From Armatimonadia bacterium (lineage in GTDB: Bacteria > Armatimonadota > Zipacnadia > Zipacnadales > UBA11051): a stretch of DNA of 21,334 bases. Below the pieces are notes generated by a model. The model worked only from the letters and a program-made list of their open reading frames with translations. It did no database searches and had not been told where the DNA came from. The DNA lies in assembly GCA_039683575.1 (NCBI GenBank), contig JBDKRC010000309.1, forward strand, positions 1 through 21,334. Direction: 5' to 3'. The translations under genes and the position numbers were made by a program. Of the stretch, positions 2,123 through 15,301 are shown piece after piece. Each line of letters opens with the position of its first letter. The stretch's first letter is position 1.

Positions 2123-2277
2123 ATCCAGTTCCGGCTCAACGGTCATGATTGACAGTTGCAGAAACATTGCGCGTTTACTGTAGATTGCGAGACTTCTCCG
2201 GGTCAAGACTAATAGCGGAGTTCTGTCTCCACAGGGAGGCTCTGTCTCCGCGCACCCGTCCAAACTGGAGCCGCAAT

Positions 2278-4971
2278 ATGAACTGGATACGCTACTCTGG
2301 TCGGATCATCCTGGCATTGGGCGTGATCGCGATTGGGGTGTGGGCCACCACCAATGAGTTGGTGGACAAGCCAGTCACGAAGTTCTGGCTCGGCCTGATG
2401 GTGTACCTCGTCGCGGCTGAATTGGCGTGGACCCTGGCTGATTACTACCTCACGGATTCGCAGTCTCGCCTTCCCCGGCGCGGGCTGCTGCGGTTGGCGA
2501 GCAGCGACCGCTTCATTCTCACCCTCAACAGTTGGCTCTATGACGGTGGCCGGTGCCGTTACGTGGACATCCTGACCAAGCAGGACGTGCTGCGCGACGC
2601 CCATCAGTCACTGCAGGCGGCGGTCCTGACAAGGGAGTCGCGCCCGCGCGTACACCTGCTGCCAGGGGCAGTAGGGACGGGGCGGAGCACGCTGCTGTTG
2701 CGGCTGGCGCGCATCCTCGCCGAGAACAGCCAAACCGTCTTCGTAGGGCTTCCGGGACCAGAGATTGCCGGTCTGGAGACCGTGATTGAGACGGCGCGGA
2801 ACCGGCAGGTCTACCTGTTCATCGATGATCTGGACCTGCAGCCGCAGGCGGAGGAGTGGCTGTACGATATCTATCGCAGCCAGTTGCCGATTGTGGTGGT
2901 GGCGACGACGAGCGAGGAAACTCGGCCGCAGTATGGCGGGCACAAGCTCGCGGCCGTGCGCCCGGCGGGGCTGCTGGCGGAGGGGACGGCGCACCCATCG
3001 CCCGTCACGCCCAACGACCTCGCGGAACTGGCCCGGAAGTTGCAGTCACTCGGCCGGATGAAGCGTCAGGAGGTTGCTGTCGGGACGACGACGGACCTGC
3101 TGGAGGCGACGCGGTACATGCAGGGGTGGGATCCGAAGCAGGGACTGTGGCAGGACCTGGACAGAGGACCGAAACTGGCGCAAGAGCAAAAAGTGATGCT
3201 GGCGCTGTGCGGTGCGGCGGAGTTGGCGATACCCGAGAGCCTGTACGGAGCGATCTTTGGCGAGAAGGCAATCGGGCGTTGGGCGAAGGCAGACCTCGTG
3301 TCGCTGCAGCATTGCCATGCGCTGCCGCCGCATCACAAGGTGTGCCTTGATCTGCTGCGCGAACTGGACCCGGCGAGTGAGACGGTGCATGGGGCCCTGG
3401 ACAAACTGACCAAGCTCGTGCTGCCAGTGACGCCGGTCTTCGCCGTGCGGCTGCTGTACGGGCTCGCGAAGGAAGACACGCTGCGAGAGGTTGCGCGGGC
3501 GCAGGTGCAGGCCCTGCAGGTGCAGGCAATGCAGGGGCAGGTGCGGGAGAGTTGGCCGCAGGCGGTACAGCGGGCGTGGAGGCGGGTGCTGGAGGAATTG
3601 GACCTGGTCACGGCGGACGTGACGCAGGACGAGAGCTATCCTCCTGAACTACTGATCGCCATGTCCAGGGCCTTCGACCGCAAGGACTATGAGGGCGCGC
3701 TGGCGGCGGCGCAGAAGCTTGCGAAGCATGAGTTGTATGAGAGCGCGGCGGGGTTCAATATAGCGCTGGCGCTGTGTCATCTGGGCCGGATGGAAGAGGC
3801 CGGGGCCGTGCTGGCGAAACTGAAGTCCGAGCCACCGGGGACGCACTACCTGCGCGGATTGATCGCCGAGAGCAGAGGCGACTGGCCCGCGGCACTGGAT
3901 GAGTATGAGGAGTCACGGAAGGCGGATGAGGTGCAGTTGATGGCGACGCGCCAGCTCGCCTTCGCGTACCTCAAATCGGGCGCCCCGCGGGCAGCATTGC
4001 CGCTTTTTGAGGCAGCGTTGCTACACACTCCGAAGAGCGCGGACCTGTATGGCGGGCTGGCGGTGGCATACCTGCAGGCGGGAATGGCTCAGCGGGCGGC
4101 GGCGCAGAGCGCGCGAGCGATACAGGCGGGGGTGGAGCCGAGTGAGGCGCGCAAGGCGGTGGCCAGCGCGTGTGCGAAAGTGCGCGCCTACAGCCGGGTG
4201 GCAGCGGAACTTGAGGCATGTGTATCGTACGAAAGCGGGGACCTGGAGGCCTGGAGCGGGCTGGCGACGGCATGCCGGTGGCTGGGGCGATTCGAGCGCG
4301 AGGCGCAGTGCCTGGAGCAACTGCAGGAAGCGCAGCCGATGACGGATGACTTGCGGCTGCAGATGGCTCGCAACCAGCGTGATCTGGGCCATCCCGAGAC
4401 CGCCTTGGAGCTATTGCAGCCGCTACTGACGGCGGACCAGCCGCCTCTGCCGGCACTGCTGCTTGCGGCGGAAGTGGTCGCGGGCAATAACGACCCGGTG
4501 CTGCAGGAGACGCTCGCGCAGCAGGCAGTGGCGCAAGGGGAGGCGAGTGGCTGGGCGCAGTACTGGCTGGCGGATAGCGAGACGCAGAGCGGCCGCACGG
4601 AGCAGGCGGGCGAGCACTATCGGGAGGCCGTGCGCAGGCTCAAGGCGCAGGTCAATGAGGGCGTAACGCCGGGGCGGGCGGCGAAGTGTTGGCAGGCGAT
4701 CTACCTGTCCGCGGTCCAGCTCGGAGACGAGGATCTCGCCAGGGAGGCGGCGCGCAAGGCACGCCAGGAGGCTGCCATCTGCGAGGCGCTGGGGGCGGAG
4801 GTCGAGTCGGTCGTGCATCACCGCGCGGTGCCGACGGCTCTGTTCCTGGAGAGCCTGCCGAGCACGTTACCCGCAGGCCCTCCGAGCGAGCCAACCGAGG
4901 CGCAGCCCGCGCCGAACCAGCCAGAGGTTCGGAGCTTTCGCAAAGGGGGACCGTTTCGGGCGCGAGGGTGA
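2278..4971 (+). CDS. Membrane-anchored (2 TM) protein with degenerate STAND-like P-loop domain and C-terminal TPR repeats
   Basis: GGAG at 2267-2270 precedes ATG 2278. Two hydrophobic segments (IILALGVIAIGVWA; FWLGLMVYLVAAELAW), Walker A-like GAVGTGRS, Walker B-like VYLFIDD, and TPR-type helices (AGFNIALALCHLGRMEEA, THYLRGLIAESRGDWPAA, LYGGLAVAYLQAGM). Confidence 0.75.
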   Translation: MNWIRYSGRIILALGVIAIGVWATTNELVDKPVTKFWLGLMVYLVAAELAWTLADYYLTDSQSRLPRRGLLRLASSDRFILTLNSWLYDGGRCRYVDILTKQDVLRDAHQSLQAAVLTRESRPRVHLLPGAVGTGRSTLLLRLARILAENSQTVFVGLPGPEIAGLETVIETARNRQVYLFIDDLDLQPQAEEWLYDIYRSQLPIVVVATTSEETRPQYGGHKLAAVRPAGLLAEGTAHPSPVTPNDLAELARKLQSLGRMKRQEVAVGTTTDLLEATRYMQGWDPKQGLWQDLDRGPKLAQEQKVMLALCGAAELAIPESLYGAIFGEKAIGRWAKADLVSLQHCHALPPHHKVCLDLLRELDPASETVHGALDKLTKLVLPVTPVFAVRLLYGLAKEDTLREVARAQVQALQVQAMQGQVRESWPQAVQRAWRRVLEELDLVTADVTQDESYPPELLIAMSRAFDRKDYEGALAAAQKLAKHELYESAAGFNIALALCHLGRMEEAGAVLAKLKSEPPGTHYLRGLIAESRGDWPAALDEYEESRKADEVQLMATRQLAFAYLKSGAPRAALPLFEAALLHTPKSADLYGGLAVAYLQAGMAQRAAAQSARAIQAGVEPSEARKAVASACAKVRAYSRVAAELEACVSYESGDLEAWSGLATACRWLGRFEREAQCLEQLQEAQPMTDDLRLQMARNQRDLGHPETALELLQPLLTADQPPLPALLLAAEVVAGNNDPVLQETLAQQAVAQGEASGWAQYWLADSETQSGRTEQAGEHYREAVRRLKAQVNEGVTPGRAAKCWQAIYLSAVQLGDEDLAREAARKARQEAAICEALGAEVESVVHHRAVPTALFLESLPSTLPAGPPSEPTEAQPAPNQPEVRSFRKGGPFRARG

Positions 4972-5122: not shown

Positions 5123-5174
5123 GCCAGCATGGGGAGCAGTACCCGCTGGCTGTGATGCTTTGGCGGAGGTCCCG

Positions 5175-6071
5175 ATGGCAGGCAGGCATGTGGTTCTGAG
5201 CTTACGCGAGCAATTGCCGGGCGGTCGGCCGAGGCCCGCGTTCGCGCTCGTGTTGCTGCTGGTGAACTTGCTGCCGTGGCCGGTGCTGTCTGGGGTGGCG
5301 TGGAGCGCAGACGACGTGACGATGATGCCGATCAACCCGGCGGCCGCAGCGGAAACAATCGTTGGCCGGTACCTGACGGAGGGCCCGAAACGATTCACCA
5401 AGCCAACGTCTCTGCGGGACTGCGATCTCGATGCCCGGCTCAAGGGACAGGTTGAGATTGAGGTGTGGCGGCGTCTGGAATGGCTGCCACACCGAGCGGA
5501 GCGCCGGGTGAAGGAATGGCTCGTGCAGTTGCAGCCAGATCCCGGGCAGGTAGTCAGTCTGCCGCAGCTCCTGAAGCTGCCTGGTGATGAGGGAGGGGGG
5601 CTTGAGGTGTCCGGGCTTGGAGACCTACCGGAGGAGTCGTTCACTGAGCAGACTATGTCCGGCAAAGCCGGAGGATCGGCTGGCTGGCCCAAGGCCGAGA
5701 TCGGCCTGGAGTTAGGCCTCGGCCTTACCGTCCTGGAGTGGTCGCGCTACAGCGTCTGTCGCATCCCCCATGTCTCAAGGCAAATCACCTTCTGCAGCGG
5801 CGTGTCGCAACGAACCATGATGATCTGGCTGACCTTCGGGCCTACAGACAACGGCGCGGACCTGCACCGGTGGGCGACCGCGGTCCTGTGCCGCGGCCAG
5901 GAAATCGGGTTCGGTCCCGACCCCGTGCGCCATAGCGGCAAGTGGCGCTTTCGATGGGGGAAACATGCTCTGTCGAGAGAACTGGCGGAGCTGGAGAAGC
6001 GGAGGGAGCAGGCGTGGAGTTCTTCAGAGGAGCTTCACCCGAAGCTTATCGCTTTCGGCGCAGAGGGGTGA
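5175..6071 (+). CDS. Putative secreted hypothetical protein (paralog of the next gene)
   Basis: GGAGGT then ATG 5175. Hydrophobic signal-like stretch AFALVLLLVNLLPWPVLSGVAWSA. Shares LEWSRY and IGFG blocks with 6129..6959. Confidence 0.7.
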   Translation: MAGRHVVLSLREQLPGGRPRPAFALVLLLVNLLPWPVLSGVAWSADDVTMMPINPAAAAETIVGRYLTEGPKRFTKPTSLRDCDLDARLKGQVEIEVWRRLEWLPHRAERRVKEWLVQLQPDPGQVVSLPQLLKLPGDEGGGLEVSGLGDLPEESFTEQTMSGKAGGSAGWPKAEIGLELGLGLTVLEWSRYSVCRIPHVSRQITFCSGVSQRTMMIWLTFGPTDNGADLHRWATAVLCRGQEIGFGPDPVRHSGKWRFRWGKHALSRELAELEKRREQAWSSSEELHPKLIAFGAEG

Positions 6072-6128: not shown

Positions 6129-6959
6129 ATGAGCAGGTCTGAGCTATTGAGGCTGTCCATGCTCGTGCTGTTGATGGTGCTGCTGGTGATGGGAGTGGCG
6201 GCGGCTGGGACACCGCCGGTGACGATCGATGATCCCGTCATTCCGCTGAACCCGGGGATGATCAACACCCGGGCTATGGATGAGTACTTCCGTCTGAATA
6301 GCGCCGCTGATGCGGACAAGAAGTCTCTGGAGGAACTCCTGGGGAATACGCCGGCTGACCCCATGTGGGTCAGGAAACTGTTAAGTATTCTCACCAACAC
6401 AGACTTCGAGGCGCCTCCCATGTCCCCCGCTGAACTCACTCATGAGGAGTGCCGAGCGTATCTGCTCGACAAGGACGTCTCGATCAAGATCGGCTATGCT
6501 CCCGCAGGGCTGAATCTGGGGGCGGACAAGAAGAAGACGACCCTCATTCTTGAGTGGAGCCGGTACCGGCGCTACCAGGTGCCCTACAAGATAACAGTGC
6601 CGACCGGCGCAGACGGCTTTTGCCGGTTCCGATACGGAGTGGCGGCGCGTATGGTGATGCACACCACGAAGGAGGGAGTCGAGTTCGGCGTCACGGGCGG
6701 CTGTCTGGGATTGGGCGTGAAGGCCAGCGTCAAGGAAGTGAAGTGCGACTACCAGATCATTGGCTTCGGTTCCGCTGACGCCTCGCGCGCTCTGCCCGCG
6801 CTGGTGGATCTCAGTGATGCACAGGGCGTCCGACACGTGACAGAGGCATTCAGGACCATCAGAGAGTGCGCCTGGAAGTGCGTACAGCAGGGGGGCAACG
6901 ACAAGGTGTTCTACCCGCAGGTCATTGCGGTGGAGTCCAAGCCGGCGGTGGCGCCATAG
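6129..6959 (+). CDS. Putative secreted hypothetical protein
   Basis: Signal peptide MSRSELLRLSMLVLLMVLLVMGVAAA, purine-rich RBS GAAGGGGA, typical GC3-rich codons. Confidence 0.8.
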   Translation: MSRSELLRLSMLVLLMVLLVMGVAAAGTPPVTIDDPVIPLNPGMINTRAMDEYFRLNSAADADKKSLEELLGNTPADPMWVRKLLSILTNTDFEAPPMSPAELTHEECRAYLLDKDVSIKIGYAPAGLNLGADKKKTTLILEWSRYRRYQVPYKITVPTGADGFCRFRYGVAARMVMHTTKEGVEFGVTGGCLGLGVKASVKEVKCDYQIIGFGSADASRALPALVDLSDAQGVRHVTEAFRTIRECAWKCVQQGGNDKVFYPQVIAVESKPAVAP

Positions 6960-7190: not shown

Positions 7191-7694
7191 ATGGCTGTTA
7201 ACCCTGTTCCGGGTATCAGTAACCCGCGGCTGAGGCGGCTGCATGCAGATTTGGCCGCTGTCATCGAGCTTACGAGGGCATCCGATCTGATCGCGGCGTC
7301 CTATGCTGGCAACCCGCCCGACCGCTATCGGATCCTTTATCGCTGCCGGGGGTTGTATCTGCCCGAGGGTACGTCGGAGCCGGAGTTGCTAGACCACCAC
7401 GAGGCTGATTACTACCTGCACCGGGATTACCCGCGGCGTCCGCCGCAGATTCTCTGGCGGACCCGGATCTTCCATCCGAACATCATCAGCGCCGAGAACG
7501 GTGGCGGCGTATGCATCGGCTCGTGGACGCCCTCCGAGTCGCTGGCGGACCTGGTGCTGCGCGTTGGTGAGATGATACAGTACCGGCTGTACAACCCCGA
7601 GGATCTACTCAACCGGCAGGCTGCCGCGTGGGCTGAGGCTCACGCAGACGAGCTGCCGGTAGATGACCGCCCGCTGGCGGTTTACGGACTTTGA
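7191..7694 (+). CDS. Ubiquitin-conjugating enzyme E2 (UBC fold)
   Basis: Canonical UBC motifs in order: DYPRRPP (YPxxPP), IFHPNI, GGVCI (catalytic Cys108, codon 7512), SWTP, and LNRQAA (PLNxEAA-like). Confidence 0.92.
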   Translation: MAVNPVPGISNPRLRRLHADLAAVIELTRASDLIAASYAGNPPDRYRILYRCRGLYLPEGTSEPELLDHHEADYYLHRDYPRRPPQILWRTRIFHPNIISAENGGGVCIGSWTPSESLADLVLRVGEMIQYRLYNPEDLLNRQAAAWAEAHADELPVDDRPLAVYGL

Positions 7695-7734: not shown

Positions 7735-8736
7735 ATGAAGAATTACTGGCGGTTGGCAATCTGTGCGTGCGTGCTGCTCACGGCAGCCCTGGCCCAGGCC
7801 CAGGAGGGCGGCCTCAAGGAAGCGGTGGACAAGATCGGCGACGCCGTGGTGACGGTGGTGGCTGGCAATCGCGCCGGGGCAGGGCTCATCGTCAACTCCG
7901 ACGGCTATGTGCTGACCAACAAGCATGTGCTTGATAAGGCGCAGGCGGCAGACGTTATCTTGCGCAACGAGGAGAAGGTCAGCGCCAAGGTCGTCAGATT
8001 CGCCACAGAGCGCGACCTGTGCCTGCTGAAGGTCGAGCGACAGCATCTGCCGGCGGTGCAGTTCGCGAGCTCTAAGGGGTTGAGGCAGGGGGAGGACGTG
8101 GCAGCCATCGGCGCGCCGCTCGGACTGCCGAACACGGTGACCAAGGGCGTCATCTCGGCGACGGACCGCGATATCTCCGGGCAGAAGTTCCTGCAGATTG
8201 ACGCGGCACTCAATAAGGGCAACTCCGGCGGGCCAGTCATCAACGAGAAGGGGCAGGTCATTGGGATCGCGACGAAGGTGGCGAAAGAGGCGGAGAACAT
8301 GGGCTTCGCGATCCCGAGTGATGATGTAACTGCCTTTCTTAGTGAGGCTAACGTAACATTCGCGACGGCCCTGACCGCGGAGGCCCCGGAGGAAGCAAAG
8401 CCGACTGCCGAGGCTGAAGCGCCGGCAGCTGAGGCTGCTCCCGCAGTGCCTGAGGCGCCGGCGGCACCGGCAATAGGGTTGCAGAATCCATGGATGCTGC
8501 TCGCGGCGGCTGCGCTTGTATCGTTCCTGGTCTCTTTGATTACTGCCTTGCTTGTGTCCCGCAGCGCCGCAAGAGAGGCTGTCGTGCCTGCTGCGCCAGC
8601 GGGGTATCCTGCGCCCGCGCCGACGCTTGGATATCAGCAGCCGCCAGCCCCTCCGTTGGCGGCACCCATGCCTCCGCCGCCAGCGGCTCCCCCGCCTACT
8701 GACGATTTGAGCGACATCGACATCGAGTTGCGATAG
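7735..8736 (+). CDS. Membrane-anchored trypsin-like (S1C/HtrA-type, PDZ-less) serine protease
   Basis: GGAG RBS then ATG 7735. Signal peptide ending AQA, catalytic triad TNKHV / RDLCLL / GNSGGP, Ala/Glu/Pro linker, TM helix WMLLAAAALVSFLVSLITALLV, and a Pro-rich tail ending DDLSDIDIELR. Confidence 0.9.
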   Translation: MKNYWRLAICACVLLTAALAQAQEGGLKEAVDKIGDAVVTVVAGNRAGAGLIVNSDGYVLTNKHVLDKAQAADVILRNEEKVSAKVVRFATERDLCLLKVERQHLPAVQFASSKGLRQGEDVAAIGAPLGLPNTVTKGVISATDRDISGQKFLQIDAALNKGNSGGPVINEKGQVIGIATKVAKEAENMGFAIPSDDVTAFLSEANVTFATALTAEAPEEAKPTAEAEAPAAEAAPAVPEAPAAPAIGLQNPWMLLAAAALVSFLVSLITALLVSRSAAREAVVPAAPAGYPAPAPTLGYQQPPAPPLAAPMPPPPAAPPPTDDLSDIDIELR

Positions 8737-8758
8737 GCACATTAGCGCAAGTTATAGT
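8728..8758 (+). promoter_or_regulatory. Possible internal promoter for the Ubl gene
   Basis: AT-rich 78-nt spacer with TATAGT (8753-8758). TTGCGA lies at 8728-8733 but with a long 19-nt spacer. Strong RBS GGAGGT before 8815. Confidence 0.3.
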
Positions 8759-8814
8759 CACAAACATAGACAGACATATACCGAAAACTCCAGCGAATAG
8801 AGCGGAGGTGCCTT

Positions 8815-9084
8815 ATGGGCAAAGTTAACGTGGTCATCATGGACACAACCGGCAGTAAAGAGCAGAAGGCGTCGCTGCCGGACGATGCACCCGTGCGCCG
8901 GATCATCGCCAAGCTCGTACAGATGATGACCCTCCCCACCACGGGCCCGGACGGTCAGCCGCTCAGCTACAAGTTCCACCACAAGGCCTCCGGCAAGCAG
9001 CTCACCGATGAGCAGACGCTGGGCGAGGCCGAAGTCAAGGATGGCGACGTGCTGCGCCTGCAGCCGGAGATCACCGCCGGTTAG
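8815..9084 (+). CDS. Ubiquitin-like beta-grasp protein (YukD/EsaB-like) with free C-terminal Gly
   Basis: 89 aa. GKQLTDEQTLGEAEVKDGDVLRL parallels ubiquitin [23 protein letters not shown]. Ends ...PEITAG-stop and lies between E2 and E1. Confidence 0.9.
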   Translation: MGKVNVVIMDTTGSKEQKASLPDDAPVRRIIAKLVQMMTLPTTGPDGQPLSYKFHHKASGKQLTDEQTLGEAEVKDGDVLRLQPEITAG

Positions 9085-9123
9085 CAGCGCTGCTGGGTCT
9101 CAACCATCTTCTCAGGAGGCCCC

Positions 9124-10323
9124 ATGCCATCCGATACCCCGCTTGATGAAATGGATGTAGTCCTCGAGGAGGACCGCTATGATCGCCTGCGCCTGATCCC
9201 CTGGTGGGACCAGGAGCGGCTGCGTGCGGCGCGGGTGATGGTTGTGGGCGCCGGCGCGCTGGGCAACGAGATCATCAAGAACCTCACGCTCTTGGGCGTC
9301 GGCCGGATCTTCATCGCTGACCTTGACCGCATAGAGGACACTAATCTCACCCGGGCCATCCTCTTTCGCCATGGCGACGTCGGCCGCTGTAAGGCGGAAG
9401 TGGCCGCGGAACGCGTACCCGAGATCAACCCGGACGTGATCGCCCAGGCCTTCGTCGGGGACATCAACTACGATCTCGGGCTCGGCGTCTTCCGCGACAT
9501 GGACCTGGTTTTCGGCGCGCTGGACAACCGCGAGGCGCGAGTAACGATCAATGCCAACTGCTGGAAGCTCGGCAAGACGTGGATAGATGGGGCGATAGAG
9601 CTGATGCAGGGCGTAGCGCGGGTGTTCGCGCCAGCCGAGGACGCGCCGTGCTACGAGTGCACGATGTCGGAACTCGACTACAAGCTGCTTAGCCAGCGGC
9701 GATCCTGCGCCTTGCTTTCGCGGACGGATGTGTTACAGGGCAAGGTGCCCACGACGCCGACGATTGCCTCGATCATCGGCGGGATCCAGGTGCAGGAGGG
9801 GATCAAGGTCCTGCATAGCGACCGGGAGCTGCCCAATCTTGCCGGGCGGGGCTTCTTCTTCAATGGGCTCAACCATGATTCGTACGTTGTGCAGTACCAG
9901 CGGCGTTCTGACTGCCCTGCGCACGAACAGATGTTCGAGATAGTCGAGTTGGATGCTTCGAGTGCCGACTTGACCGGCCGCAAGATGCTCGAGATTGTGC
10001 AGGCGGAGGTGGGGCCGAAGGCCGTAGTGGAGTTTGAGCGGGAGCTCTGCACCTACCTGAGCTGTTCGCGTTGTCAAACGAAGCACGAGCACTTCCGCTC
10101 CCTGGGCAGAGTCACCGTTGACGATGCGGTGTGCCCAACCTGCCACGAGCTATGCGAGCCGGAGCTGACTCACAGCCTGAGCGGCGCCGAATCGTATCTG
10201 GACATGACCTTGGAGCAAATGGGCATTCCGGCGTATGACGTCGTTACGGGCCGGCAGGGGCTGACGATGAAGCACTTCCTGCTCAGCGGCGATCGATCGC
10301 GAGCGCTGGGTGCGCTGGCGTAA
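9124..10323 (+). CDS. E1 ubiquitin-like activating enzyme (ThiF/MoeB/E1 family) with C-terminal Zn-ribbon extension
   Basis: DRYDR, VMVVGAGALGNEIIKNLTLLGVG, D..IEDTNLTR, KAEVAA, ALDNREAR, PCYEC (C176/C179), candidate catalytic Cys195 (RRSC), CPAH, and extra CSRC/CPTC pairs. RBS CAGGAGG. Confidence 0.93.
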   Translation: MPSDTPLDEMDVVLEEDRYDRLRLIPWWDQERLRAARVMVVGAGALGNEIIKNLTLLGVGRIFIADLDRIEDTNLTRAILFRHGDVGRCKAEVAAERVPEINPDVIAQAFVGDINYDLGLGVFRDMDLVFGALDNREARVTINANCWKLGKTWIDGAIELMQGVARVFAPAEDAPCYECTMSELDYKLLSQRRSCALLSRTDVLQGKVPTTPTIASIIGGIQVQEGIKVLHSDRELPNLAGRGFFFNGLNHDSYVVQYQRRSDCPAHEQMFEIVELDASSADLTGRKMLEIVQAEVGPKAVVEFERELCTYLSCSRCQTKHEHFRSLGRVTVDDAVCPTCHELCEPELTHSLSGAESYLDMTLEQMGIPAYDVVTGRQGLTMKHFLLSGDRSRALGALA

Positions 10324-10336
10324 CAGGTGACTTTTC

Positions 10337-11284
10337 ATGGACCAACCGTCAGACGACCTGGAGCTCGAAATAGCGCCGACTGAGGCCCCCGCGAGTACGG
10401 CGGCCAGCCCGGCGGTTCTGGTCTCATCGCAGGCCTTCGACGAGATGACGCAGCATGCGCTCGAGGAGGCGGAGCACGAGATCGGCGGCATCATGGTCGG
10501 CTCCGTCGTAGAGGGCACCGGGACCGTCGTCATCATCGAGGACGTGATCCGCGGCACACATATGACCCATAGCCGCGGTAGCGTGACCTTCACCCACGAA
10601 TCCTGGACCGAAATCAACCGCGTCAAGGACGAGCGCTTCGCGGACAAGCGTGTAGTGGGCTGGTATCACAGCCACCCCGGCTTTGGGATCTTCCTCTCCA
10701 ACCACGACCTGTTCATCCACGAGAACTTCTTCAATCTGCCGTGGCAGGTGGCCTTTGTGACCGATCCCAGGGCCAGTACCTGTGGTTGTTTCGTGTGGCA
10801 GGACAAGACAATCGTTCAGGACCTTGATTTCGGTGTACTGACCTCGCCACAGGAGCATCTCAGCGGCCGTAGCAAGCCCACAGCGCCGGCACCTGCACCA
10901 ACCGCATCGGCTCCGCAGGCGACCCAGCAGCCGGTTTTCAACATGCCCGCGCCGACCCCGGTGCTGCGCCGAGACCCTGGGCTCTCGTGGGCTCTCGGGA
11001 TTCTGGCGATGCTTGTGGCCCTGGCTGTCGGTCTCAGCCTCGGGAACTTCGACGCCGGACGTCGAGCCTCCGCCAGCATCCAGGCCCTGAACGTCAAGCT
11101 GGACACCATCGTCAGTGACATGCAGGAGCTGCGCAGTGCCGTGTCAGAGCGTCAACCAGCGGCGCAGGCTGAGTCGCGCGAGCCAGCTTCGGAGCCGAAA
11201 GCGCCCCCTCCAGCACCCACACCAGCCGCAGTTCCTCCAGAAAAGGGAGATTCCGGTGCCGGATCAGCCCCACCAAGCCCCTGA
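10337..11284 (+). CDS. JAB/MPN+ (JAMM) metallo-isopeptidase with C-terminal TM helix and coiled coil
   Basis: EIGGIMVG and VVGWYHSHPGFGIFLSNHD (intact E..HxH-x7-S-x2-D), TM helix LSWALGILAMLVALAVGLSLG, then heptad-like IQALNVKLDTIVSDMQELRSAV. Confidence 0.92.
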   Translation: MDQPSDDLELEIAPTEAPASTAASPAVLVSSQAFDEMTQHALEEAEHEIGGIMVGSVVEGTGTVVIIEDVIRGTHMTHSRGSVTFTHESWTEINRVKDERFADKRVVGWYHSHPGFGIFLSNHDLFIHENFFNLPWQVAFVTDPRASTCGCFVWQDKTIVQDLDFGVLTSPQEHLSGRSKPTAPAPAPTASAPQATQQPVFNMPAPTPVLRRDPGLSWALGILAMLVALAVGLSLGNFDAGRRASASIQALNVKLDTIVSDMQELRSAVSERQPAAQAESREPASEPKAPPPAPTPAAVPPEKGDSGAGSAPPSP

Positions 11285-11915
11285 AGAAGATGAAATTGAG
11301 ATAGAAGCGTTGTCGGTCGAGGCCGCACTGCCGTCGTGGGAGCCGGAGGGACCGCCTGGCGCGGTAACCGTGCGCTGTGGCGGCGCTCTGCAACCTCCCC
11401 TGGCGTGCTATGCCCTCGGTGTTCTTGAGGATGTTCAGGGCCACGGGGTTGCCGAGCCTGGCCGGGAGGTCGGAGGCATCCTCCTTGGACAGTTCGTACA
11501 GACGTCCCAGGGGCCGCTGACGCGGGTAGATGACATGATCATCGCCGACAGCGACCAGGCGAGCCGCACGCACGTCACCTTCACCCACGCGTGCTGGCAG
11601 CAGATCCATCGCGAACTGGAGCGGCGAGACGACGGGGCGCAGATTGTTGGCTGGTACCACACTCATCCGGGATTTGGGCCGTTTCTCTCCGCCCAGGACC
11701 TTTTCATCCAAGAGAACTTCTTTGCCCATCCGCTGCACGTCGCCCTGGTCTTTGATCCGGTTCAGAGCAGCTTTGCCAGCTTCGGCTGGTGGGATGGCCA
11801 AATAGTTCGGGCCGCGGGCTGCTATGTGTGGGCCTCAGGGCCTGAGGTTGCCGACCTTTCGGCCTTTCTGCAGACGGTAAAGTACTCCGCGAAGTCACCA
11901 AATGCCACCAGATAA
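11256..11915 (+). CDS. Second JAB/MPN+ (JAMM) metallo-isopeptidase, soluble
   Basis: AGGGAG RBS (11244-11249) then GTG 11256, in frame with the ORF track entry 11115. EVGGILLG and IVGWYHTHPGFGPFLSAQD are intact. No TM segment. Confidence 0.9.
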   Translation: MPDQPHQAPEEDEIEIEALSVEAALPSWEPEGPPGAVTVRCGGALQPPLACYALGVLEDVQGHGVAEPGREVGGILLGQFVQTSQGPLTRVDDMIIADSDQASRTHVTFTHACWQQIHRELERRDDGAQIVGWYHTHPGFGPFLSAQDLFIQENFFAHPLHVALVFDPVQSSFASFGWWDGQIVRAAGCYVWASGPEVADLSAFLQTVKYSAKSPNATR

Positions 11916-12870
11916 TGACGATTACCTTGATGTCGAACTGGACGACGAGCCCGAGGGCGCGCCGGAGAACGTCCTGGATGTCAGCCTGGACGACGCTGCC
12001 CCCCCCAAACCCCCGCGCAAACTCCCCTCGACGCCCCCCAAGCCCGAGGCAAAGCCCGCAGAACCAGAATTGCCGATGATCTCAGGCGGGATCTGCGAGC
12101 GCTGCGGCTACGCGCTGCGCCCCCTGGAGGACCATTGCCCACGTTGCGGGCGGATAGGGGCAGAAGCGCCTCCGCCCGCCGAGGCTCCGGATCGACTGCC
12201 TGCACCGGCAGAGCTACCAGAGGTTGCGCCCGCCGCGCGGCGTTCCGGATGCTCTGCCTGGGCCGTGGCTGGCAGTTTGACGCTGGTACTTGCCATCGCG
12301 GGGCTGCTGGCGTGGCTGTGGCTCCAACCGCGGTTCCGGGCGCAGCGCGAATACCGCGCGGGATTGCACGCTCAGCTTGCCGGAGACTTCAAGGGCGCGC
12401 GCTTCCACTATATGAAGGCGCTGGAGTTGAACCCTAACATGGGGCTGGCGGCGCTCATGATGGGCACAACGTACCTACGAATCGGCGACCCGGCCATGGT
12501 GAGCTCGATTGACCAGTTGGTCAAGCAGGCGATGTGGGGTCAGACGGGCGATCTCGACCGCGCGGACCAATGGTTCCGGAAGGCAATCGCGATTGGGTCG
12601 CAGCTTCCGGCCTCGACCGAACTTGCAGACCCCAAGATCAACACCCCTCCGCGACTAAGGGCGTTCGCACGGGCCTTCATGGCGCTCACAGCGCTGGTGC
12701 GGGCCTCTGCGGCCCTGCAGGCGGATCAGCTCGAGGATGGGATGAAGTGGCTGGGCGTGGCCCAACAGGAGGGTCAGGCCGCGCTGACCGATGATCCGGG
12801 GAATGAGCAGGCGCAGAAGATCCTGGGCTCAATACCGCCGAATCCGCCCACAACGGCACCATCTCAGTGA
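11902..12870 (+). CDS. Bitopic membrane protein: acidic/Pro-rich N-terminus, Zn ribbon, TM, TPR domain
   Basis: CERC-x10-CPRC, TM helix AWAVAGSLTLVLAIAGLLAWLWL, and TPR EYRAGLHAQLAGDFKGARFHYMKALELNPNMGLAALMMGTTY. Overlaps the upstream JAB gene by 14 nt. Confidence 0.82.
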   Translation: MPPDNDDYLDVELDDEPEGAPENVLDVSLDDAAPPKPPRKLPSTPPKPEAKPAEPELPMISGGICERCGYALRPLEDHCPRCGRIGAEAPPPAEAPDRLPAPAELPEVAPAARRSGCSAWAVAGSLTLVLAIAGLLAWLWLQPRFRAQREYRAGLHAQLAGDFKGARFHYMKALELNPNMGLAALMMGTTYLRIGDPAMVSSIDQLVKQAMWGQTGDLDRADQWFRKAIAIGSQLPASTELADPKINTPPRLRAFARAFMALTALVRASAALQADQLEDGMKWLGVAQQEGQAALTDDPGNEQAQKILGSIPPNPPTTAPSQ

Positions 12871-12937: not shown

Positions 12938-13591
12938 ATGTTTCACGTGAAACATTTTTCCAGTTCCGACACCCCATTGACCTCTCAACTCGCCTCCACC
13001 ATCACCAGTCTTCAACTGTCCTCCGACGAGTTCGATATTCGCAGGCTTGCCGACCTTCTGGCCTGGCTACACCCCGCAGCGGCCCGCCTGGGCTTGACCA
13101 ACTACCGGGACATCCAGACCTATATCGCCCAGCTAGTTGTACCGGCTCTGTACCTGCTCTCCCCCACTCTGGCGCCGTATCGCCTGTCGCCGATGCTTGA
13201 TTTTGGGGCTGGTTCAGGGGCTGTCGGCCTGTCTCTGGCGTGTTTGCTCCCCGAAGCCGAGGTAGTGCTTGCAGATCGACGCAGCCGTGTGGTACAATTC
13301 CTCGACCTCGCTGTTAGCCGGGGCGGCCTGCGCAACTGCCGCAGCCTGCTGGCTGACCTCTCAGCCCCGTCTCCGGAGCAGCAAGGCTCTTGTGGCACGG
13401 TTTTGATAAGGGCGTACGGACCCACAACAGAGGCCCTGAGGCAGGCTGTCCTCTGGACGCGGCCTGAGGGTACCATCGCCCTGTGGCATCAGCCGCCTGC
13501 CCCTGACCCTCCCGATCATCTCACGCGAGCAGATACCTTGCAGACTTCCGTGCCTGCGCTCGCGCTCACAATATACCGCCGAGATACCTGA
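12938..13591 (+). CDS. rsmG: 16S rRNA m7G527 methyltransferase RsmG/GidB-like, divergent; start codon uncertain
   Basis: SAM motif MLDFGAGSGAVGL, LADRRSRVVQFL (equivalent to DSxxKRxxFL), LIRAYG (equivalent to SRA), and the classic position upstream of parAB. Confidence 0.75.
   Translation: MFHVKHFSSSDTPLTSQLASTITSLQLSSDEFDIRRLADLLAWLHPAAARLGLTNYRDIQTYIAQLVVPALYLLSPTLAPYRLSPMLDFGAGSGAVGLSLACLLPEAEVVLADRRSRVVQFLDLAVSRGGLRNCRSLLADLSAPSPEQQGSCGTVLIRAYGPTTEALRQAVLWTRPEGTIALWHQPPAPDPPDHLTRADTLQTSVPALALTIYRRDT
12939..12954. promoter_or_regulatory. parS: parS centromere site
   Basis: Perfect 16-bp palindrome TGTTTCACGTGAAACA, the established chromosomal parS consensus, next to parAB. Confidence 0.97.
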
Positions 13592-13620
13592 ATTAGCCAT
13601 TTCGGCGCTGGAGGGCATGT

Positions 13621-14400
13621 ATGGTAGACACCTATGCCATCATCAACCAAAAGGGTGGCGTGGGAAAGACCACAACGGCGGTCAACCTGGCCGCCTGGGC
13701 GGCCCACGATGGCAAAAGAGTGCTTCTGATCGACGCTGACCCGCAGGGCAATGCCACAAGTGGCCTGGGCATTAACCGCGCGGGCCTAACGCGCTGTCTG
13801 TACGACGTGCTGACCTCGGACATGACGGGTGGACCGCCCGTGCCGCTTCAGGAGGCCATTGTGGCTTCCTGCCAGCCAGGGCTTGATGTGTTGCCGGCCA
13901 CCATCAATCTGGCGGCCGCGGACATCACCCTTGCCAGCGCCATTGCGCGCGATACCCGCCTTAAGCACGCTCTGGGGCCCGCACAGGGGCTTTATGACCT
14001 GATCATCATCGACACAGCGCCTTCGCTCGGCGTGTTGACGGTCAATGCCCTCGCGGCGGCGCACAAGTGCGTCATCCCCATCCAGTGTGAGTACTACGCG
14101 CTGGAAGGTCTCTCCCAGCTCATGCGGATCATCAATCTGGTGCAGAGCCAGATCAACCCGGCCCTCCTGATCGCCGGGATGGTCCTCACGATGTACGATT
14201 CCCGCACAAACCTGTCGAACGAAGTCGCCACGGATGTCCGTGAGACCTTCCACGGACGCGTCTTCGAGACGACGATACCGCGCAACATCAGGCTCGCCGA
14301 GGCACCGGGGCATGGCCTGCCGGCGCTTCTCTATGATCCGCACAGCGTCGGTGCCAAACGCTACTGGATGCTGTACAAGGAGGTCTTCGACAATGCGTAA
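13621..14400 (+). CDS. parA: Chromosome partitioning ATPase ParA/Soj
   Basis: NQKGGVGKTTTAVNLAA, LLIDADPQGNATSGLG, IPIQCEYYALEGLSQL, IPRNIRLAEAP. Confidence 0.97.
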   Translation: MVDTYAIINQKGGVGKTTTAVNLAAWAAHDGKRVLLIDADPQGNATSGLGINRAGLTRCLYDVLTSDMTGGPPVPLQEAIVASCQPGLDVLPATINLAAADITLASAIARDTRLKHALGPAQGLYDLIIIDTAPSLGVLTVNALAAAHKCVIPIQCEYYALEGLSQLMRIINLVQSQINPALLIAGMVLTMYDSRTNLSNEVATDVRETFHGRVFETTIPRNIRLAEAPGHGLPALLYDPHSVGAKRYWMLYKEVFDNA

Positions 14401-15301
14401 GAGAGGCTTAGGCCGAGGGCTATCGGACCTGCTTTCGGGCGAGGTGCTGTCGCAGAGCCGCGCAGTGATCGAAGTGCCACTAGACGAGATAGAGCCCAAT
14501 CCGCACCAACCGCGGCAGATTATGGACGATAGCGCCCTTGAGGAGCTCACAGTGTCCATCGAGGCCCACGGCGTGCTGCAGCCGATCATGGTTCGCGCGG
14601 CTGGTAGCGGCTATCAGATCGTTGCGGGGGAACGGCGCTGGCGAGCCGCGAGGCGGGCTGGTCTGCGGACGGTGCCTTGTCTGGTGCAGAATGCCGACGA
14701 CGCCCAGTCCCTGGAGCTGGCGATGATCGAGAACCTGCAGCGCGATGACTTGGATGCCATTGAGGCAGCCCGTGGCTACCGCACGATGGTGCACGATTTC
14801 CGCCTCACGCAGGAGGAGGTATCCCGCAAGATCGGCAAGAGCCGTTCAGCGGTGGCAAACTCCCTGCGGCTCCTTGAGCTCCCCAGCGATGTTCAGGACC
14901 ATATTCAGGCCGGGCGCATCTCAGAGGGGCACGGCCGGGCGCTGCTGCCGCTCGTGAGCCAGGTGGACACCTTCACGACGATATTCGAGGCGGTGCTGGA
15001 GAATGGACTGAACGTGCGCGAGACCGAGCGCCTGGTTCGCGTAACGCTCAATCCTGAGCTGGCAGAGGCACCGACAGAGGCCGCTGAGAAGCCAGAACCG
15101 GCCAAATCACCGTCGCAGGCGCATGATGTAGCCCGTGATCCCCATGTCGCGGCGGCCGAGCAGGCGTTGCAGACGGCCCTGGCGGCCAAAGTGGTAATCC
15201 GGCCCGGAGCAAAACGGGGAGGCGTGATCCACATCCGTTACTATGATGGAAACGACCTGGAGCGACTGCTGAATGTCCTGGGTCAGGCGGACGAGGGGTA
15301 G
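14393..15301 (+). CDS. parB: Chromosome partitioning CTPase ParB/Spo0J
   Basis: ATG 14393 overlaps the parA stop. RGLGRGL, PNPHQPR, GVLQPI, IVAGERRWRAA, IENLQRDDL, and HTH TQEEVSRKIGKSRSAVANSLRLL. Confidence 0.97.
   Translation: MRKRGLGRGLSDLLSGEVLSQSRAVIEVPLDEIEPNPHQPRQIMDDSALEELTVSIEAHGVLQPIMVRAAGSGYQIVAGERRWRAARRAGLRTVPCLVQNADDAQSLELAMIENLQRDDLDAIEAARGYRTMVHDFRLTQEEVSRKIGKSRSAVANSLRLLELPSDVQDHIQAGRISEGHGRALLPLVSQVDTFTTIFEAVLENGLNVRETERLVRVTLNPELAEAPTEAAEKPEPAKSPSQAHDVARDPHVAAAEQALQTALAAKVVIRPGAKRGGVIHIRYYDGNDLERLLNVLGQADEG

Follow-up and report, generated by a model that had tools for sequence, protein, structure and literature searches.

An acidic short linear motif is shared by most components of a bacterial ubiquitin-like conjugation system

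Why should a protease, an adenylating enzyme, two peptidases and a repeat protein that are encoded side by side all carry the same kind of short acidic peptide? This question is raised by an operon from Armatimonadia bacterium (GTDB lineage Bacteria; Armatimonadota; Zipacnadia; Zipacnadales; UBA11051), which we analysed within a window of 21,334 nucleotides (NCBI GenBank assembly GCA_039683575.1, contig JBDKRC010000309.1, positions 1 to 21,334 of the forward strand). The operon encodes a ubiquitin-like protein (Ubl), an E1 enzyme, an E2 enzyme (E2a), two JAB peptidases (JAB1 and JAB2), a trypsin-like serine protease and a protein combining a zinc ribbon, a membrane helix and TPR repeats, hereafter the ZnR-TM-TPR protein. 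Further parts of the system lie on other contigs of the same genome, namely a second E2 (E2b), a Prok-RING_1 protein and a transmembrane protein with an FHA domain (TM-FHA). A first-pass annotation, made from the letters of the DNA, had proposed that the shared peptide binds the Ubl in the manner of a SUMO-interacting motif (SIM). Here, we find that the motif is real, conserved and system-specific (Table 1; coordinates of all features in Table 2), and that it very probably serves in docking.

Six acidic peptides in one operon

Re-reading the DNA recovered all six acidic peptides that had been listed, each exactly at its place. They have in common an alternation of hydrophobic and acidic residues that runs into further acidic residues (e.g., DIDIEL or LDVELDD), and together they define a real short linear motif with the consensus h-[DE]-h-x-h-[DE][DE], where h denotes a hydrophobic residue. 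The copy of the E1 immediately precedes a conserved block of the form (D/E)RYxRLRLIPWWDQ. The poorest fit to the consensus is the copy of JAB2 (IEIEA), which is part of the protein only if the start of JAB2 lies upstream of position 11283. The JAB2 open reading frame (ORF) opens at 11115, and its start is probably the GTG at 11256, which is preceded by AAGGGAG six bases upstream. At the equivalent place, the orthologue of JAB2 in the related locus L001 reads KDDLVLEP.

The motif had been described as common to five unrelated proteins. Several families do carry it, but JAB1 and JAB2 are paralogues with about 41-43% identity across the domain, and the two copies of the ZnR-TM-TPR protein go back to a tandem duplication of 48 bp (DNA 11925-11947 and 11973-11995 are 83% identical over 23 nt). 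This leaves four protein families and about five independent copies. Repetition at the DNA level was rejected as a general cause of the likeness. Apart from the duplicated TPR copies, similarities span 16 nt or less and mirror the likeness of the peptides.

The idea of a linear motif residing on disordered protein ends was borne out by its conservation, its restriction to the system and the disorder predicted by AlphaFold2 (AF2) at the N-termini of the E1 and of TM-FHA. The AF2 model of the E1 reached a mean predicted local distance difference test (pLDDT) score of 89.7, with residues 1-20 as coil at a pLDDT of 53-54. Residues 1-90 of TM-FHA were modelled at a pLDDT of 40-54. In neither of these single-chain models did we see the motif docked onto its own protein, which is a weak negative.

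Conservation in related loci

Relatives of the operon were gathered by an E1-based scan, which gave 80 loci out of 100 confirmed relatives among 198 candidate stretches. They stem from Armatimonadota and allies, Clostridia (including gut species), Acidobacteriota and Planctomycetota. BLAST against these loci returned 80 rows for the E1, 79 each for the Ubl and the E2, 60 for the protease and 105 for either JAB query; homologues of the ZnR-TM-TPR protein were found in only three of the 80 loci (L001, L002 and L013). The carrier system is, judging from its sequences, a widespread and mostly membrane-anchored type of bacterial Ubl conjugation.

For each protein family and clade we counted the members, those matching a strict regular expression (h-[DE]-h-x-h flanked by two or more acidic residues, with no more than one basic residue allowed) and those showing the alternating form with an acidic x (Table 1). 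The proteases are only about 30-35% identical to each other, yet the motif stands at the C-terminus of 18/18 Armatimonadota-type and 18/18 Clostridia sequences. In 31 aligned protease tails from the two phyla, nothing except the core D and I is invariant, the mean column identity is 26%, and the motif is flanked by anything from a Pro-rich linker to the end of a membrane helix. The tails typically read DLSDIDIEL[KR] in Armatimonadota-type proteases and ERTDF[DE]I[DE]ILE in those of Clostridia.

Table 1 Occurrence of the motif by protein family and clade. Each cell gives the number of sequences / strict matches / sequences with the alternating form and acidic x; an empty cell marks a combination outside the count.
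Family and region	Armatimonadota-type	Clostridia	Acidobacteria	Planctomycetota
Protease, last 25 residues	18/16/18	18/17/18	23/0/0	
E2b tails	15/11/15	4/0/3	21/0/1	3/0/0
E2-TM-FHA fusions, 140 residues past the UBC domain		26/20/25		
JAB, 50 residues ahead of the domain	38/8/24	43/19/23	21/0/0	3/0/0
E1, 28 residues ahead of (D/E)RYxRL	22/10/13	34/0/4	20/0/0	3/0/0
RING-like ORFs	20/9/13	47/4/30	20/0/4	3/0/0
E2a tails (standalone)	10/0/1			

Most Armatimonadota-type E2b tails contain two copies, one directly behind the UBC domain and one at the extreme C-terminus, where the typical form is DD[LIF]xIE[LF]x. At least one JAB per locus shows the alternating acidic form in 15 of 20 Armatimonadota-type and 22 of 28 Clostridia loci. 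Other carriers inside the related operons are zinc-ribbon, RING and membrane proteins, and here the motif also occurs internally, between zinc fingers.

Conservation among orthologues, which the first-pass annotation had made a test of its proposal, thus holds for the Armatimonadota-type and Clostridia loci, whereas the acidic form fails in Acidobacteria and Planctomycetota. The N-terminus of TM-FHA keeps the pattern h-x-[IV]-x-h-[DE][DE]-L in 7/8 Armatimonadota-type and 17/17 Acidobacteria sequences, and in all 17 of the latter the first x is R or K (h-[RK]-[IV]-T-L-[DE][DE]-L). Acidobacteria also retain a non-acidic strand, PETIRVDA, at the N-terminus of the E1, and many of their E2b tails end in W-x-E-K-I-V-I. 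Judging from these retained strands, the strand itself is more widespread than its acidic decoration. The Acidobacteria loci (L055-L080) encode a protease without a membrane tail.

Rarity of the motif

The regular expression matched 284 times in the 5113 crude ORFs of the genome, corresponding to 0.15 matches per 1000 residues. Nineteen ORFs had a match in their first 36 residues and nine in their last 15. Termini genome-wide are thus not equally rich in the motif: only these 28 of the 5113 ORFs carry it there, and five of the 28 belong to the system. Likewise, the statement that housekeeping termini lack the motif held on the contig of the window, where four of 20 ORFs matched (E1, protease, JAB1 and the ZnR-TM-TPR protein) and none of them is a housekeeping gene.

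Finding at least four of seven adjacent genes with a match has a binomial p of 3e-8. Of 20000 rounds in which residues were shuffled within eight terminal segments, 8 reached the observed total and 2 the observed number of segments with a match. Five of the genome's ten system proteins are found among the 28 ORFs with a terminal match (hypergeometric p = 8e-10 for the 5113 ORFs), in a test whose regular expression had been fitted on the four window proteins. Motif density in the families of the system amounts to 0.84-3.7 per 1000 residues, compared to 0.06-0.07 in the remaining ORFs of these loci. A position-specific scoring matrix built from the protease tails proved useless as a test across families, since it failed on all of them except the E2b tail (9.4 bits); the window's own protease scored 28.1 bits and the next ORF 15.0 bits.

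The Ubl as predicted receptor

What would such a motif bind? We consider the chances about even that it is a Ubl-docking peptide, analogous to the SIM, to the LC3-interacting region (LIR) and to the UFM1-interacting motif (UFIM), with the Ubl as its receptor. The carriers would then be the partners of the YukD-like Ubl, comprising the ThiF E1, the UBC E2s, the Prok-RING_1 protein, the JAB peptidases, the membrane protease and the membrane FHA protein. Apart from the Ubl, nearly all components bear the motif on termini that are disordered and probably cytoplasmic. The peptide would bind the Ubl non-covalently, probably by strand addition beside β2 and helix 1, in such a way that acidic side chains of the peptide meet basic residues of the Ubl, and each enzyme would thereby capture free or conjugated Ubl, as eukaryotic E1s, E3s and proteases do by means of SIM, LIR or UFIM peptides. 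Docking itself, the Ubl as receptor and the geometry of binding are what we infer here from the evidence below.

The Ubl is highly conserved, with a mean column identity of 76% in 73 aligned orthologues and an invariant C-terminal PEITAG. It is the only universal component that lacks the motif, as none of 79 Ubl ORFs contains a strict match. The two segments of the Ubl that had been cited as basic, SKEQKASL and VRRIIAKL, are indeed found in its sequence. Between the clades with the acidic motif and the Acidobacteria, the Ubl differs in 28 columns, five of which involve a change of charge. Four of these (K3 to Y/T, G13 to E, S/G20 to E and K33 to V in Acidobacteria) would fit a charge-complementary contact with the motif, while the fifth, E16 to R, goes in the opposite direction.

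Modelling of the peptides together with the Ubl, as proposed in the first-pass annotation, was carried out for the protease tail, using a Ubl alignment of 73 rows and a protease-tail alignment of 31 rows in three runs with three controls. The pair scored 0.43 (0.43, 0.41 and 0.43 in the three runs) compared to 0.02 for the best control, which lends weak support to a contact; no interface contacts were reported. Controls of both kinds remained at 0.00-0.02, the runs had at least 84% of their contacts in common, and the pLDDT of the partner was 57 or higher. Of 80 solved complexes, 58 attained the mark set for this test, as did 2 of 110 mismatched pairs, and passes with scores of 0.60 or below comprised only seven of the 80 solved complexes plus both mismatches.

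Several points weigh against the Ubl as receptor, or against the generality of the motif. For binding as such, the evidence is a single model score, in a range that is more often wrong than right unless the contact was likely beforehand, and this score of 0.43 may reflect likeness to solved Ubl-peptide complexes. The test covered a single pair, Ubl and protease tail. That the Ubl is free of the motif is a weak argument, given that it is an 89-residue domain without tails, and the covariation of charge amounts to an anecdote, as it concerns one lineage or event and, for one of its changes, runs in the wrong direction. The regular expression, the segments and the statistics were all defined after the copies had been seen; on account of this post hoc character, we take the conservation across genomes as the independent evidence. 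As to generality, none of 12 JAB2-type ORFs has a strict match, the E2a of this genome is without the motif, and the E1 copy is poorly retained in Clostridia (4/34). In Acidobacteria, the acidic form was found in 0 of 20-23 sequences per family (protease, JAB and E1), and it is absent from the three Planctomycetota loci.

A more far-reaching picture, in which multiple weak contacts of free or conjugated Ubl with the peptides on E1, E2, RING, JAB, the membrane FHA scaffold and the cytoplasmic tail of an extracytoplasmic protease act as a SUMO/SIM-like 'glue' that assembles a transmembrane complex and couples tagging in the cytoplasm to proteolysis outside, and in which the motif may descend from an ancient Ubl-peptide recognition that also lies behind SIM, LIR and UFIM, is in our view unlikely.

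As a side observation on the Ubl, many orthologues run past the ...EITAG end, some by 1-10 residues and three by a zinc ribbon and a membrane domain. Examples of extended Ubls are found in L020 (4238-4528), L024 (7153-7953), L030 (950-1564) and L044 (3346-3933). Given the residues beyond the Gly, these Ubls must be cut to expose it, like ubiquitin precursors. The Ubl of the window stops exactly at the Gly.

Alternative explanations

Could the likeness of the peptides be a product of chance, favoured by GC-rich DNA and by termini that are acidic and of low complexity? In favour of this, the motif spans few residues and tolerates much variation, two of the six copies stem from one local duplication and the JAB2 copy is poor; single segments, moreover, look unremarkable under shuffling (0.39 for the E1 and 0.23 for TM-FHA). 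Taken jointly, however, the shuffled segments hardly ever matched the observed values, the density is 6- to 25-fold above that of the genome's ORFs and 12- to 60-fold above that of the other ORFs in the loci, the core residues stay invariant in protease tails that are otherwise unconserved, and the motif is found in low-GC Clostridia too. We therefore regard this explanation as close to negligible. A function other than docking would be compatible with a motif that is terminal, disordered and acidic: it might be a degron or cleavage site, a metal-binding acidic strand or an auto-inhibitory pseudo-substrate that mimics the tail of the Ubl, whose own last strand and tail also alternate (VLRLQPEITAG). 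Related bacterial Ubls are described as responsive to Ca2+ in the accessible part of a recent preprint (10.1101/2024.11.21.623966). The occurrence of the motif at N-termini, at C-termini and internally nevertheless argues against a degron specific to one terminus, and its presence on the non-enzymes ZnR-TM-TPR and TM-FHA argues against a pseudo-substrate. There is also no conserved Lys or Gly-Gly-like cleavage context, and a role of this kind appears improbable to us.

If the motif is a docking peptide, its receptor might be a folded domain of another core enzyme, i.e., the E1 dimer, the UBC domain, a JAB or the Prok-RING_1 protein, which would act as a hub that gathers the others. Everything said for docking applies equally here, E1, E2 and JAB are as universal as the Ubl across the 80 loci, and eukaryotic non-canonical E1s likewise bring in their E2 by way of a short peptide in the tail, UBA5 having, as far as the accessible text of PMC8304084 describes it, a separate UFC1-binding region. 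A hub of this kind would, on the other hand, carry a copy itself, since none of E1, E2b, JAB and RING is free of the motif; the AF2 model of the E1 leaves its own N-terminal copy undocked (a weak negative), and it was the pair of Ubl and tail that passed the complex test, if weakly, against controls near zero. We thus hold an enzyme hub to be unlikely. A further candidate is the FHA domain of TM-FHA, which would turn this protein into a membrane scaffold for E1, E2, JABs, RING and the protease tail, in keeping with the assembly at the membrane proposed in the first-pass annotation. FHA domains recognise peptides in extended form, acidic residues might take the place of phosphate, and TM-FHA is a frequent core part of the system, with homologues in 55 of the 80 loci. 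By eye, G-S and A-P-Q-H stand in its FHA domain (residues ~313-377) where an Arg and a Ser usually bind phospho-Thr, so that the domain may not depend on phosphorylation. Against this receptor, three loci (L047, L048 and L053) carry the motif on E1, E2b, JAB and RING, while no homologue of TM-FHA was found there. A TM-FHA profile (A4) gave only weak partial matches in these three genomes, whose completeness was not reported, with best E values of 2e-5 to 2e-3; in two genomes the best match was a CdsA-like membrane protein, in the third an unrelated protein whose FHA domain is N-terminal. The same profile matched two positive-control genomes at 8.7e-124 and 5.4e-59. This search superseded an earlier one with a single TM-FHA protein, which returned no match in the three genomes but had no positive control. 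The persistence of the motif where TM-FHA was not found makes the FHA domain a less likely receptor, the AF2 model of TM-FHA leaves its two N-terminal copies undocked, and no Thr is conserved across the motif copies. Overall, we see little probability in it.

Comparison with known systems

UBA5 is among the closest known cases. The E1 of the window consists of a single ThiF domain of 399 aa, and a Foldseek search with its AF2 model retrieved ThiF (1zud, TMt 0.87) and MoeB (1jw9, TMt 0.87) as well as UBA5 (5iaa, TMt 0.75; 0.74-0.75 for UBA5 structures overall). The predicted fold is that of the homodimeric ThiF/MoeB/UBA5 class. According to the accessible part of PMC8304084, a short conserved LIR/UFIM in the disordered tail of UBA5 recruits UFM1 for activation in trans within the dimer. 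Our system resembles this arrangement in that a short conserved peptide (13/22 Armatimonadota-type E1s) is found in a disordered tail of a small E1 with the ThiF/UBA5 fold. It differs from it in that the E1 peptide is N-terminal, strongly acidic and, as judged from the six window copies, without a conserved aromatic residue, and in that the peptide is common to E2, JABs, RING, protease tail and scaffolds, its binding to the Ubl being only predicted.

The consensus of a SIM is a run of three to four mostly contiguous V/I/L residues. Calling the motif SIM-like is justified by its acidic flank, as every copy has two or more D/E at a distance of at most four residues from the core, but not by the core itself, which alternates in five of the six (IDIEL, LELEI, IEIEA, LDVEL and LDVSL); only the E1 copy (DVVL) contains a V-V-L run. 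What remains of the likeness is that, in both pathways, many enzymes bear a hydrophobic strand flanked by acidic residues, and that a basic face of the Ubl is the supposed partner. SUMO, too, is recognised non-covalently by its conjugation and deconjugation enzymes, as stated in the accessible text of PMC12687455. The Ubl studied here is YukD-like or ubiquitin-like and not SUMO. For the LIR, or Atg8-interacting motif, the core is given as [W/F/Y]-x-x-[I/L/V] in the part of PMC5538626 available to us. Common to both would be acidic residues followed by a strand that adds to β2 of a beta-grasp protein. The LIR core is, however, matched by just one of the six window copies (YLDV of the ZnR-TM-TPR protein), and the F-[DE]-I-[DE]-I of Clostridia has the wrong spacing.

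At the level of the whole operon, the joint presence of a Ubl ending in Gly, a ThiF E1, a UBC E2 with HPN and Cys, and a JAB fits the prokaryotic YukD-Ubl/E1/E2/JAB type. This operon type, including Prok-RING_1, was reportedly predicted by Burroughs, Iyer and Aravind in 2011 by comparative genomics. All of its parts, i.e., Ubl, ThiF E1, UBC E2, JAB and Prok-RING_1, are found in the genome studied here. The existence of complete prokaryotic Ubl systems is cited in PMC7159879, as far as its accessible text goes. Further bacterial pathways of conjugation that combine a Ubl with E1, E2 and peptidase are Bub and Bil. In the accessible part of the respective preprint (10.1101/2024.11.21.623953), Bub is characterised by DUF6527 serine proteases, fused enzymes and oxyester chemistry, and the Bil E1s by tandem adenylation domains; that part mentions no shared peptide. 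Our system is neither of the two: Pfam detected no DUF6527, the E2 has HPN...Cys, the E1 has one ThiF domain, and the only BilD match by PADLOC was at E 1.7e-5 over 113 residues. PADLOC assigned the locus to no known defence system, with generic similarity to E1, JAB and protease as its only matches.

We found no description of the peptide in the literature that we searched, which did not extend to Burroughs et al. 2011 and supplementary files, and no experimental study of this operon type in bacteria. Should docking hold true, a logic of short linear motifs would be described here for the first time in a bacterial ubiquitin-like pathway, and the motif would predict clients genome-wide. It would also serve to find unlinked subunits and candidate substrates, would supply defined peptides and Ubl residues to mutate, and would allow one to test whether peptide recognition of beta-grasp modifiers, as by SIM, LIR and UFIM, predates eukaryotes.

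Unlinked components and the candidate E3

The use of the motif as a finder is illustrated by this genome itself. A scan of the proteome for further carriers, as had been suggested, gave 24 terminal matches off the contig of the window and picked out TM-FHA on contig C204. This protein has two N-terminal copies of the motif (DDEIEISLEDLEED and ALVIDTEDLLDLSDE) as well as a polytopic membrane domain and, at its C-terminus, an FHA domain; its homologues in the related loci stand alone or, in Clostridia, are fused behind an E2. On contig C200, the Prok-RING_1 protein, which also has a zinc ribbon and a membrane part, directly adjoins E2b. E2b ends with two further copies (...PEVELDIELGDLEEEKEEGDGDDLGIELG), and the contig stops 128 bases past its gene. 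In addition to these parts, the system, which is thus distributed over three contigs, includes E2a and the ZnR-TM-TPR protein. As the genome encodes one Ubl and one E1 of this type, the genes on C200 and C204 must work with the operon of the window. The assembly consists of 352 contigs and may be incomplete.

The suggestion that the motif may substitute for an E3 did not stand up, as the system has a Prok-RING_1 protein of its own beside E2b, and 66 of the 80 related loci contain a C4HC3 RING-like ORF. From its sequence, the Prok-RING_1 protein is a candidate for the E3 of the system.

Two other proteins with motif-like ends, YIDDLELEIEG on contig C69 (11462-13522, + strand) and WYDDVEVELLP on contig C159 (2314-3369, + strand), have N-termini that resemble signal peptides. 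Since they are probably secreted, their ends are more likely terminal β-strands than docking sites.

The operon and its surroundings

The protease of the operon has a signal-peptide-like N-terminus, a single C-terminal membrane helix and a Pro-rich tail. Its ORF opens at 7663, but the start was placed at 7735 (MKNYWRL), which is probably correct.

Table 2 Coordinates of motif copies and genes. Positions refer to the window unless a contig is named.
Feature	Position	Strand	Pfam match	Description
Motif copy 1, protease C-terminus	8701-8730	+		DDLSDIDIEL, followed by R and stop codon
Motif copy 2, E1 residues 8-17	9145-9174	+		DEMDVVLEED
Motif copy 3, JAB1 residues 6-12	10352-10372	+		DDLELEI
Motif copy 4, JAB2	11283-11312	+		EEDEIEIEAL; weakest copy, fails the regular expression
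Motif copy 5, ZnR-TM-TPR protein N-terminus	11917-11949	+		DDYLDVELDDE
Motif copy 6, ZnR-TM-TPR protein N-terminus	11965-11994	+		ENVLDVSLDD; local duplicate of copy 5
E2a	7191-7694	+	UQ_con, E 3.6e-9	UBC-fold E2 with HPN...C, motif-free here
Protease	7735-8736	+	Trypsin_2, E 3.4e-34	trypsin-like serine protease
Ubl	8815-9084	+	YukD, E 4.6e-14	89 aa, YukD-like / ubiquitin-like, ends ...LRLQPEITAG
E1	9124-10323	+	ThiF, E 4.2e-52	ThiF/MoeB/UBA5-like adenylating enzyme, Cys-rich C-terminal domain
JAB1	10337-11284	+	JAB, E 7.3e-14	JAB/MPN peptidase, one membrane helix past the domain
JAB2	11256-11915	+	JAB, E 1.2e-10	second JAB peptidase
ZnR-TM-TPR protein	11902-12870	+	TPR_2, E 3.6e-7	zinc ribbon, one membrane helix, TPR repeats
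TM-FHA	C204 28947-30149 (locus L081 1948-3150)	-	FHA, E 1.7e-17	400 residues
Prok-RING_1 protein	C200 13111-13929	-	Prok-RING_1, E 2.2e-9	zinc ribbon and membrane part
E2b	C200 14200-14928	-		second E2; pair 13111-14928 is locus L082 3112-4929
STAND NTPase	2149-4971	+		nSTAND5, 940 residues, with TPR repeats
Paralogous membrane proteins	5160-6071 and 6129-6959	+		common LEWSRY block

The tail of E2a in the window reads ...DELPVDDRPLAVYGL. E2a proteins from loci of the Syntrophomonadaceae type (L012, L014, L052 and L068) have a C-terminus that is acidic and then continues with I-I-I-[LS], e.g., ...DNEIIIL. Such tails, which the E2a of the window lacks, resemble a classical SIM-like run more closely than they do the alternating motif.

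Upstream of the operon, the two paralogous membrane proteins had no match in Pfam or PADLOC. BLAST with these two and with the STAND NTPase against the ORFs of the 80 related loci returned zero matches, and they thus look like neighbours peculiar to this genome. Directly downstream of the operon lie rsmG, parA and parB (window 12938-15301, + strand), a trio that is located near the replication origin in many bacteria.

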